The notes under the pieces were generated by a model. It was not told the origin of the DNA. It did no database searches and saw nothing but the letters and a program-made list of their open reading frames with translations. Shown piece after piece: positions 4,499-7,330 of a stretch of 64,000 bases of DNA (its first letter is position 1; each line of letters begins with the position of its first letter). Source of the DNA: a virus. The position numbers and the translations under genes are program-made. Where the stretch lies: UHGV virus genome UHGV-0209617; one strand, written 5' to 3'.

Positions 4499-4811
4499 AT
4501 GATAAAAAGAGTATTTTTTACGTTTATCGTGCTGCAGATATTTTTATAGGTCCGTGCTATGCAAGTTCAGACAGATTAGCAGATATTGGAGCGGAGTTAT
4601 TTAAAGAAAGAATTGTAGAAGATATACCTTTCAAGGTTGCAGATTTCAAAATAACAAATGAAGCGACCGTTGCTAGAGAACAGCCACATATGGCTGGTGA
4701 CTCTAAATACGAATTTATGGCAGTGCAGAATCAAAATGTAATGCTTATGATTGATGTTTATGTGAACCGAGAAGGTTACATAGATAGTATTATTAACTGT
4801 GGGGAAAATAT
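4499..4811 (+). pseudogene. Secreted paralog family member, frameshifted and 3'-truncated
   Basis: 5' end near-identical to 8118-8690 (MIKR.FFTFIVLQIF) but one T is missing in the T-run near 4540, giving TAG at 4547-4549; homology to the intact paralog stops near 4800 where the 4812 gene begins. Confidence 0.55.
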
Positions 4812-6422
4812 ATGGATGAGAAGAATTTTATCAGATATGGGGAGAAAGCTATAGAATACCTACATATGGGAGATGAACAAGGTTTTTTTGAGGCCTTGGG
4901 GGTTATTAAACATGTTGGAAATAAAGACTACGCTAATATGCTAACATCACTCTATTTTTATAAGAAAAAGCAGTTTAGAAAATGTATGGACTGTTTAGAA
5001 AAAATAGCAGAATGCAAAAACGATAATTTGAAGGAGATGTTAACGGTATGGTATTGGGATTTTAAAATATGTTGTTTGGCAGAGCAAAAAAAGTTTTCTG
5101 AAATATCGAGTATTTTTTGTGAAGATAAAGGACTGTTTAGCGAAGATGATGAGATCATAATGCAATATTCAAGCTACGTATATGCTAGATATCTTGCAAT
5201 AAAAAGTGGATTTCAAAAAGATAAAAACACTGTATATTATCCTGGAATTTTGGGTAAGAATGTTATTCGTACAGAAGATCAGTTTATGTCTGTTATTTAC
5301 AGAGAATTAGGTCGAGATTTACTAGATATACATTTAAATTATCATGCTCTTTTACAATTGAAGAAGGCAAATGTTGAAAAGAACATTTGTAGGGAAATGA
5401 AGGAAAAATTGTTAGTCAAGGTACAATATATCTGTGATTTAGGTGACCAGAAATATTATGCATTAACACCGCAAGTTGTTAAATACATGGAGTATATTAC
5501 AAATATCATTACCAATGAAAAAAATTTAAATGAGGATAAACTTAATGATTTGATTATTTCTTTATTTTCAGACGAAATTTTAATCCAAGATATAGACAAT
5601 TGGTTATTTATGGTTGATTTATTTTCTGTAACGGCAGATAATGAAAAATTTATTAATTTCTTTAGATGTTATGATCAATTTATACTTAAATGTCTAAGTA
5701 GAGATAATGAGATCGTAGCAAAAAAATTAATATGGATGTGTAATGACGAGAGATTTTCCTCATTAAAATATGAACATACAACCTTTAAAGATTATTGGGA
5801 ACATAAGATTGAGCTGTATATGCCTGGGTTTATTGCAAATAGTAGAGTTTATTCATGTGATAAATATATTCTTGATAATTTATCAGAAAAGAGTAAATGG
5901 GCATATGAAGCAGCAATATGGCAGTATGAAAATGTTATGGAATATGGCAGTGAATATATGGATGCTGGTTTGTTGAGTCTAGCGTTTATGAGAGTGCTAG
6001 AAACAGAATTGAATGCTAGAGTAATAGCGCCTTTATCAAAAGCTATAAGTGAAGATACAAAGGGAAAAGCTTTACTAGACAAATTATTAGTTGGGGCTAA
6101 TAGTTACCATTATAAGTTTTTGAAAAAAACGAATAAGGGAGCTACATTAGGTCAAATCGGGCATTTTCTTGAGGGAATTCGGAAAAAAAGTATCGCAGAA
6201 TATTCCTGTTTTTATAATATTTTATGTAATAGCTTATTGAGTATTTCTGGAAAAGAGGCCATAGATGCAGGGATATTCGAAGAAATGACTAGCCAAAAAC
6301 TAATTGATAAGTATAGAAATCCACCTGCACATTCTAAATATCTTCAAAAGTCAGAAGCAGTAAAGGGAAAACTATTTGTAGAAGATAGTTTGAGAAAACT
6401 ATTTACATATATTAACCGATAA
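4812..6422 (+). CDS. Hypothetical cytoplasmic protein, 536 aa, no recognisable domain
   Basis: Long uninterrupted ORF, no signal peptide, AT-rich codon usage; begins exactly where the paralog pseudogene homology ends. Confidence 0.55.
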   Translation: MDEKNFIRYGEKAIEYLHMGDEQGFFEALGVIKHVGNKDYANMLTSLYFYKKKQFRKCMDCLEKIAECKNDNLKEMLTVWYWDFKICCLAEQKKFSEISSIFCEDKGLFSEDDEIIMQYSSYVYARYLAIKSGFQKDKNTVYYPGILGKNVIRTEDQFMSVIYRELGRDLLDIHLNYHALLQLKKANVEKNICREMKEKLLVKVQYICDLGDQKYYALTPQVVKYMEYITNIITNEKNLNEDKLNDLIISLFSDEILIQDIDNWLFMVDLFSVTADNEKFINFFRCYDQFILKCLSRDNEIVAKKLIWMCNDERFSSLKYEHTTFKDYWEHKIELYMPGFIANSRVYSCDKYILDNLSEKSKWAYEAAIWQYENVMEYGSEYMDAGLLSLAFMRVLETELNARVIAPLSKAISEDTKGKALLDKLLVGANSYHYKFLKKTNKGATLGQIGHFLEGIRKKSIAEYSCFYNILCNSLLSISGKEAIDAGIFEEMTSQKLIDKYRNPPAHSKYLQKSEAVKGKLFVEDSLRKLFTYINR

Positions 6423-6576
6423 TGTATTTTTGTTATTCATATCAAAAATAAGAAAACATAGATAATATTTACAGAATATATAGTTTATTAAATGAACTAT
6501 ATAATACGACGCAATTAAAATATGTACTGGGTTGATTAACAATTTTATTTCAAAGTGATGATAGGAGTGTTTAAAG

Positions 6577-7254
6577 TTGAGGAGAATATTTTCATATTTT
6601 TTAGCATTAATAATCATGTTATCGGCTACCACAGGAATGGCTGCTGATGACAGATGGGTATGTATAGAAGATGATGGTATAGGTCAATTCTATTTAGATT
6701 CCAAGACAACGTCATATGATTCAGCAGCAAATACAGTAAAGTTCTGGGTTAAATACGAAGAGAATTCCAAAATCGTAAATATGGATTACTATTTGGTGGA
6801 TATCAGTAACACAAAATATGGTATTATGCGTTCAGCATTTTATCAAAATAAAACATATCCGGAGATAAAGAATTATGAAAATGTGGTACCGCAAAATCCG
6901 ATTTGGCCAGATGATATTATAGAGAAGGCAGCTAACATGGTATGTGATAATAACAACGCTAAGCATATGTATCCTAGTGGTGTCGACAGGTGGCATTGGC
7001 TGTATTCCACTGAGCAGTGCACATACAATTATGCTCCTGGTATGGTAGTTGTAGATAAAGAAAAACGCACAGTGACAGTGTGGACGCAATCTGTATACCC
7101 GGAGCATGGAATTGGTGGTGTAACACGGTGGGTATGTTATTTTAATGAAAATATGGTGGAGCACACTAATAGCAGAGGTGTATATAAGCAGTATGTCTTG
7201 CCAGATACATTAGAGGAAGCTGTCTGGGAAAAAGCTGAGCCATATATGAAGTAA
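6577..7254 (+). CDS. Secreted hypothetical protein
   Basis: 225 aa; N-terminal signal peptide MRRIFSYFLALIIMLSATTGMAADD; Cys/Trp-rich mature part. Confidence 0.55.
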   Translation: MRRIFSYFLALIIMLSATTGMAADDRWVCIEDDGIGQFYLDSKTTSYDSAANTVKFWVKYEENSKIVNMDYYLVDISNTKYGIMRSAFYQNKTYPEIKNYENVVPQNPIWPDDIIEKAANMVCDNNNAKHMYPSGVDRWHWLYSTEQCTYNYAPGMVVVDKEKRTVTVWTQSVYPEHGIGGVTRWVCYFNENMVEHTNSRGVYKQYVLPDTLEEAVWEKAEPYMK

Positions 7255-7330
7255 ATTATTTATTTCATATATGGCCTATAGGTTAGAATTAAGGTCTAAC
7301 TTTTTGAGGTTGGTACAACATAGGGGGAAA

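Follow-up and report, generated by a model that had tools for sequence, protein, structure and literature searches.

A prophage accessory island with two separately mobile genes, one encoding a TPR-like protein with a putative HEPN-like RNase domain

The DNA analysed here (the window) is a 64,000-nucleotide (nt) stretch of UHGV virus genome UHGV-0209617 and forms the end of a 154.7-kb ENA metagenome contig. It carries an array of paralogous genes for secreted proteins that is interrupted, between positions 4784 and 7300, by a segment encoding a 536-amino-acid (aa) protein and a 225-aa protein (Table 1). How did this segment come to lie within the array, and what could the 536-aa protein do there? 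The initial annotation had proposed a single cargo insertion that destroyed one paralog, with the 536-aa protein as a possible immunity or effector partner of the secreted family. Our analysis shows that the segment is made of two independent single-gene cassettes. We lean towards viewing the locus as a mosaic of these two cassettes in an AT-rich moron/defence island, in which the 536-aa protein would combine a tetratricopeptide repeat (TPR) sensor with a HEPN-like RNase, would be borne by mobile genetic elements (MGEs) and would probably act in abortive infection.

Both open reading frames (ORFs) are genuine genes, as judged by purifying selection and by lengths well beyond those expected by chance. 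At the local base composition, the probability of a stop-free frame is ~8e-24 for the 536-aa ORF and ~1e-8 for the 225-aa ORF. The ratio of nonsynonymous to synonymous substitution rates (dN/dS) is 0.23 between the 536-aa gene and its copy in L001, a 5.2-kb Logan contig, and 0.22-0.33 between the 225-aa gene and its copies in L001 and in a gut-metagenome contig, L003. The gene coordinates of the initial annotation were correct. A promoter and terminator scan of positions 3500-9200 gave no signals above shuffle expectation.

Contig L001 defines the left edge of the segment. It is collinear with window positions 4784-8792 at 96.7% identity and carries the 536-aa gene, the 225-aa gene and paralogs 3 and 4 (P3 and P4) in that order. 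Left of the position corresponding to 4784 it consists of wholly different DNA, encoding an unrelated 200-aa secreted protein. Since L001 shares the four-gene block but not its left flank, positions 4784-4805 are a genuine recombination junction. A three-way alignment reveals at this junction a 15/20-nt microhomology that is common to the paralog and to the 536-aa cassette at its left end.

The boundary between the two cassettes is equally well defined. The 804-bp 225-aa module (window 6499-7300) is present at 92% identity in six gut-metagenome contigs (L003-L008), all of which lack the 536-aa gene. In L003, the DNA to the left of the module matches (84%) the DNA that lies to the left of the 536-aa gene in L001, which makes the 536-aa gene (about 4806-6498) a precise ~1.7-kb indel relative to L003, bounded by ATATAATAT and ATATAATAC. 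The G+C content of the 536-aa cassette is 29.2% and that of the 225-aa module 35.8%, in surroundings of 36-46%. No 3' half of the truncated paralog 2 (P2) is found downstream: positions 7255-7300 are still part of the 225-aa module, and from 7323 on comes the 5' module of P3. Because the 225-aa module occurs alone, the G+C contents differ and the P2 3' half is missing downstream, the segment represents two independent single-gene cassettes rather than one cargo in an otherwise intact gene. As a single gene present or absent at fixed slots of related mobile elements, the 536-aa gene has the hallmark of a moron or MGE accessory cassette. An insertion sequence or transposon was also considered and rejected, as there is neither a transposase-like ORF or domain nor a terminal inverted repeat at 4784/6498 or 4784/7300; the only repeat at the cassette ends is the imperfect 9-nt direct repeat ATATAATAT/ATATAATAC. 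A 20-nt inverted repeat (85% complementary, at 6444-6463 and 7330-7349) flanks the 225-aa module; it is probably a chance occurrence in AT-rich DNA, since its left arm lies in the 536-aa cassette.

P2, the paralog at the left edge of the segment, is a pseudogene, and its truncation near position 4800, reported in the initial annotation, is borne out. A 1-nt deletion in a T-run near 4541 shifts its frame, and its homology to P4 is lost at ~4805, 7 nt ahead of the start codon of the 536-aa gene. P2 positions 4488-4805 are 96% identical in nucleotide sequence to the 5' half of P4 (8107-8423), whereas the intact paralogs P1, P3 and P4 share only 43-48% pairwise amino acid identity (47-48% for P1 against P3 and P4); judged by this difference, P2 is a very recent duplication or gene conversion and not an old member of the array. 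The 64 nt upstream of P2 (4423-4486) resemble the upstream region of P3 instead (86%). As the 3' half of P2 is absent downstream, the P2 junction reflects a replacement or deletion at the microhomology, by which a recent copy of the P4 5' half was joined, on the left, to a 536-225-P3-P4 block that already existed. Illegitimate recombination would have made this joint and deleted the 3' half of the paralog in the process. The proposal that a cargo insertion destroyed one paralog thus holds in part: the truncation falls exactly at the start of foreign DNA and L001 confirms the junction, but that DNA did not arrive as a single unit and no paralog 3' half follows it.

To which family does the 536-aa protein belong? 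A word-indexed search retrieved only a 96% identical ortholog (P0001) and a 39% identical homolog (P0002), and an exhaustive HMMER search with the alignment of ortholog and homolog (family cut-off E<=1e-3) extended the family to 224 representatives of 50%-identity clusters, spread over Bacillota and Proteobacteria. Only 3 of the 224 are full-length relatives; the others share just the C-terminal ~190 residues. This domain is always C-terminal and follows an N-terminal part of 300-560 residues; of 151 cases, 22 are stand-alone. None of Pfam, NCBIfam, PHROGs and PADLOC has a model for the family, and neither the 536-aa nor the 225-aa protein has a significant match in these four collections, so that for sequence-to-profile searches the earlier description of both as lacking recognisable domains still stands. 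The sole PADLOC match of the 536-aa protein, to PDC-M32B (E 0.004), covers 48 residues, and PADLOC found no consistent match to described or candidate defence models among 74 family members. A tblastn search with the 536-aa protein found no match among INPHARED phages or PLSDB plasmids.

The domain architecture was resolved by structure prediction. AlphaFold2 run with a 3-sequence alignment gave a model that was not usable (predicted local distance difference test score, pLDDT, 53); with 100 family members it gave a confident, all-helical model (pLDDT 90.6, predicted template-modelling score, pTM, 0.83). The N-terminal part consists of tandem helix-turn-helix repeats that form a solenoid like those of solved TPR proteins, and the family profile matches consensus TPR with an E-value of 8e-21. 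In 74 full-length family members, Pfam recognised TPR (ANAPC3, TPR_19), zinc-ribbon and SEC-C domains, in the N-terminal parts only. The C-terminal domain of ~190 aa contains a helical insert of ~90 residues and is marked by two motifs whose conservation was assessed over 112 domains. In the upstream motif D384 is conserved in 98%, R394 in 95%, E397 in 99%, E399 in 96% and N401 in 95%; in the downstream motif the figures are 98% for R502, 97% for N503 and 96% for H507, and R-N-x3-H is kept in 107 of the 112. PDB sequence and profile searches (A1, A3, A5) found nothing for this domain.

These motifs raise the question of whether the C-terminal domain is of the HEPN type. HEPN domains are defined by Rx4-6H with a polar N, D or H after the R, together with an upstream conserved acidic residue, typically within Ex3[KR], and several HEPN families fused to TPR were catalogued by Anantharaman et al. 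2013 (PMC3710099). R502-N-P-P-A-H507 conforms to the Rx4-6H motif and has a polar residue after the R. Upstream acidic residues (E397, E399 and D384) are likewise conserved, but in the context R394-x2-E-x-E-x-N, not Ex3[KR]. When 30 C-terminal domains were searched with PADLOC, three of the six weak matches were to AbiD (E 0.0037), CARF_HEPN (E 0.0042) and Csx1 (E 0.0079), and Hypoth_Ymh appeared at noise level (E 0.08 in Pfam, 0.11 in NCBIfam). The matches to HEPN families are marginal, each coming from a single member, individually insignificant and below curated thresholds. As the assignment rests on the motif and on these weak single-member profile matches, we regard a divergent HEPN-type domain as likely, not established. 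There is a distinctly smaller chance that the domain is not HEPN but an unrecognised all-alpha catalytic fold and hence a new enzyme family; if so, the family would be a single-gene conflict module found on phages, integrative and conjugative elements (ICEs) and defence islands, with TPR or zinc-ribbon sensors attached. Searching the literature for 'TPR-HEPN' or 'HEPN-TPR' produced no paper, nor is this architecture mentioned in the DefensePredictor paper.

The genomic neighbourhoods of family members give further information. No neighbour gene recurs in 17 GTDB loci; the gene stands alone. Several members are carried by mobile elements. In L037, an IMG/VR contig that shares 80% identity with the intact prophage of the window in the terminase large subunit (TerL) and 66% in the portal protein, the gap between these two genes (3541-5219) contains a 514-aa family member. 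The same gap contains an unknown 124-aa gene in the window (40227-40947) and a Phd/Fic toxin-antitoxin pair in the prophage L034 (14575-15295), which identifies it as an exchangeable accessory slot in this phage group. Another member, P0016, is situated inside the conjugation module of an ICE, and P0007 adjoins a GmrSD type IV restriction gene; other neighbourhoods are unremarkable. Among the 58 genes that flank family members in the GTDB loci (L009-L025), all loci taken together, a T4-type RNA ligase domain occurs in one and an RlaP 'RNA repair pathway' domain in another; the pairing of either with an RNase would recall PrrC against phage RNA repair.

From these observations, the following model can be proposed. 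Cassette 1 (about 4806-6498) encodes a TPR-like solenoid followed by a C-terminal all-alpha Rx4H domain, which we read as a divergent, metal-independent HEPN RNase. The TPR part would sense a phage protein or another MGE protein, or keep the enzyme auto-inhibited; sensing would release or dimerise the C-terminal domains, host or phage RNA would be cut, and the infection would be aborted. Such an outcome, whether classed as abortive infection or superinfection exclusion, would protect the lysogen population and the resident element. The product of cassette 2 (6499-7300), the secreted 225-aa protein, is an unrelated orphan. The points that we count in favour of this model are the independence of the cassettes and the anatomy of the junction, the fit of the motif, the weak HEPN matches, the MGE and defence context, a LlaJI-type restriction-modification system 6 kb downstream and the stand-alone nature of the gene.

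Several other explanations have to be weighed against it. The notion of one cargo that destroyed P2, with the 536-aa protein serving as immunity or effector partner of the secreted paralogs, draws on the truncation of the paralog exactly at the left edge of the segment and on the adjacency of the two same-strand genes in both the window and L001. It is largely refuted by the co-occurrence data and we consider it very improbable. Besides the missing 3' half and the six contigs in which the 225-aa module occurs without the 536-aa gene, tblastn found neither a paralog nor a 225-aa homolog near family members in 21 other loci, and paralog pairs in other prophages (L028-L035) have no 536-aa gene beside them. 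Moreover, the 536-aa protein lacks both a signal peptide and transmembrane segments, and it carries an enzyme-like invariant motif. A co-transcribed two-gene unit, such as an effector inside the cell whose sensor is secreted or lies in the envelope, fares little better. The two genes are indeed on the same strand, separated by a gap of 155 bp with no convincing terminator, and adjacent in the window and L001, yet the 225-aa gene is found by itself in L003-L008, family members in the 21 loci lack a 225-aa-like neighbour, different genes adjoin the close homologs P0002, P0006 and P0007, and the two genes differ in G+C content (29% against 36%); such a unit is quite unlikely.

The remaining alternatives concern the function of the 536-aa protein. 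It is improbable, though less so than a two-gene unit, that the protein is an offensive or selfish MGE factor, such as an addiction-type toxin or an RNase directed at competing elements or host defences. A prophage, an ICE and a phage genome all carry family members, a toxin-antitoxin pair occupies the TerL-portal slot of a related phage, and HEPN toxins are common in toxin-antitoxin and addiction modules (PMC3710099); against this, there is no conserved adjacent antitoxin-like gene, and the idea overlaps mechanistically with abortive infection and superinfection exclusion. Somewhat more credible, but still a minority option, is that the protein lacks nuclease activity and works as a TPR scaffold or regulator, for instance as either an RRNPP/AimR-like peptide or protein sensor of the mobile element or a protein with a regulatory, RNA-binding HEPN-like domain. 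A TPR-sensor/HEPN-like RNase, as modelled above, remains the explanation to which we give most weight.

The 225-aa protein begins with a typical Sec signal (MRR, a hydrophobic core and GMA|AD), read from the sequence, in agreement with the secretion proposed for it earlier. It has two W-rich repeats and only three homolog clusters, with no Pfam relative and an empty PDB sequence search, and is an orphan secreted protein, probably an envelope or extracellular moron product.

The paralogs themselves also begin with Sec-type signal peptides, read from the sequence. In lipoproteins, A, G or S is expected directly before the lipobox Cys. The residue before the conserved Cys of the paralogs is V or P, not A/G/S, and a lipoprotein assignment was rejected. 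After the 225-aa module, the next paralog unit begins at ~7323 (repeat families D9 and D1). P3 is 52% identical to the first gene of a tandem pair in prophage L034, and paralog homologs (61% identity, for P4) occur in other prophages as a tandem pair between the endolysin and sigma-like/Xis/integrase genes, a position that is a classical moron slot. Copies in other elements have decayed repeatedly: L001 has a frameshifted P3 (L001 3821-4321, 166 aa), and in six contigs (L028-L033) the first gene of the tandem pair has an internal deletion, leaving a 100-aa ORF upstream of a 188-aa gene. The paralogs are prophage moron proteins and show no link to the 536-aa family.

The island adjoins an intact prophage and contains what is left of a decayed one, and its G+C content is 35.9%, against 45.6% for the intact prophage. 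A megablast search of window 1-20000 against phages matched only a terminase fragment. The 225-aa module and the early genes of the prophage are both collinear between L004 and the window, and since the interval between them measures ~4 kb in L004 and ~13 kb in the window, it is a variable accessory region. Within it, a split P-loop gene behind an 80-aa ORF (stretch 9046-9830) may be a decayed zeta/epsilon-type toxin-antitoxin pair, judging from the sequence. A Phd/YefM-like 84-aa ORF precedes the complete LlaJI-type cluster (stretch 12434-18378). A tRNA scan of the window found none, and there is therefore no tRNA att site anchoring the island. The intact prophage also has two RNA motifs at the Rfam gathering level. 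An abiF motif (25221-25257, minus strand, 43.3 bits) occupies the gap that follows the PolA gene, and a DUF2800 motif (19849-20002, plus strand, 81.8 bits) precedes the DUF2800/PDDEXK gene.

Table 1. Features of the accessory island and its surroundings (window coordinates)
Feature	Position	Strand	Description
Decayed prophage	1-2269		Terminase large subunit fragments 1-324 and 1069-1260; HK97-type portal fragment 1778-2269; interrupted by minus-strand ORFs
Paralog array	3713-8700
Paralog unit 1 (P1)	3713-4383	+	Upstream module and gene 3820-4383, 187 aa, signal peptide; repeat families D1, D9
Paralog 2 (P2) pseudogene	4423-4805	+	ATG at 4499; frameshifted, truncated at ~4805; repeat families D2, D3, D4
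Left junction	4784-4811	+	Paralog/536-aa cassette microhomology and ribosome-binding site of the 536-aa gene (GGGGAAAA); from window/L001/P4 alignment
536-aa gene	4812-6422	+	ATG start; 96% ortholog P0001, 39% homolog P0002; dN/dS; AlphaFold2 model
N-terminal TPR-like solenoid	4812-5846	+	Residues 1 to ~345; all-alpha; putative sensor or interaction domain
C-terminal conserved domain	5850-6419	+	Residues ~347-536; common to 224 cluster representatives; putative HEPN-like RNase domain
Motif D384-A-G ... R394-x2-E397-x-E399-x-N401	5961-6014	+	Conservation over 112 domains
Motif [YF]-R502-N-P-P-A-H507	6312-6332	+	Rx4H, N after R; conservation over 112 domains
Right end of 536-aa cassette	6423-6498	+	Ends in ATATAATAC, imperfect repeat of ATATAATAT at the left cassette end in L001
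225-aa module	6499-7300	+	Gene 6577-7254 with its own flanks
225-aa gene	6577-7254	+	TTG start; Sec signal peptide; orphan family
Paralog unit 3 (P3)	7323-8016	+	Gene 7390-8016, 208 aa
Paralog unit 4 (P4)	8052-8690	+	Gene 8118-8690, 190 aa
Broken P-loop gene (GSNGSGKST)	9257-9830		Three ORFs: 9257-9460, 9445-9570, 9567-9830; behind 80-aa ORF
293-aa protein	10560-11441		Sel1/TPR-like N-terminus and DUF6273 (E 2.6e-30); between paralog array and restriction-modification system
LlaJI-type restriction-modification system	12700-18378		N6 methyltransferase, D12-class methyltransferase, McrB-like AAA_5 protein, RE_LlaJI
Intact prophage	from 18417		DUF2800, Enc34-type SSB, PolA, VapE, TerL, portal, tail genes

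If the favoured model is correct, the 536-aa protein belongs to an unannotated and widely scattered family (224 clusters) of single-polypeptide 'sensor + RNase' proteins that occupy exchangeable slots of gut prophages and ICEs, and it would be a small, concrete candidate for a new single-gene abortive-infection system. Accessory-gene hotspots of this phage group are the TerL-portal slot and the lysis-integrase slot. For annotation purposes, what looks like cargo inserted into a paralog array is in fact the product of cassettes being shuffled within a prophage moron region.

Among known systems, the HEPN-TPR families (LA2681; C6orf70/DUF4209; DZIP3), which are associated with conflict systems (PMC3710099), resemble the 536-aa protein in combining helical repeats with an all-alpha Rx4-6H domain and an upstream acidic residue. 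They differ in that no Pfam HEPN model is matched by the 74 full-length or 30 domain sequences of the 536-aa family, except for the noise-level Ymh match, and in that the motif variants [YF]RNPPAH and RxxExExN are specific to the 536-aa family, whose domain measures ~190 aa and has a ~90-residue helical insert. AbiD/AbiF (Abi_2), from lactococcal plasmids and phages, are likewise single-gene, MGE-borne and equipped with a C-terminal RNxxAH-type motif, and it is the AbiD model of PADLOC that one family member matched (E 0.0037). Unlike the 536-aa family, they have an Abi_2 N-domain in place of the TPR-like N-terminus; the profile match is not significant, and an abortive-infection role of the 536-aa family is a prediction from sequence. 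Avs/AVAST and other STAND NTPases, immune proteins that sense phage proteins (PMC13581612), offer an analogy in concept only: in them, too, one polypeptide joins a helical-repeat sensor to an effector that degrades nucleic acids. The 536-aa protein lacks an NTPase/STAND module, and its order is sensor then effector, with the effector C-terminal. In its fixed slots with interchangeable accessory or defence genes, this phage group parallels the P2/P4 antiviral hotspots (PMC9122126) and classical morons. It differs from the former in being a gut Bacillota siphophage-like group with an HK97-type portal, whose island here also contains decayed prophage fragments and a LlaJI-type system. Both the TPR and Rx4H architecture and the MGE-hotspot ecology of the 536-aa family thus have precedents; the region is ordinary in kind, a case of cassette shuffling in a prophage accessory island, but it reveals an unannotated family with a conserved putative active site.

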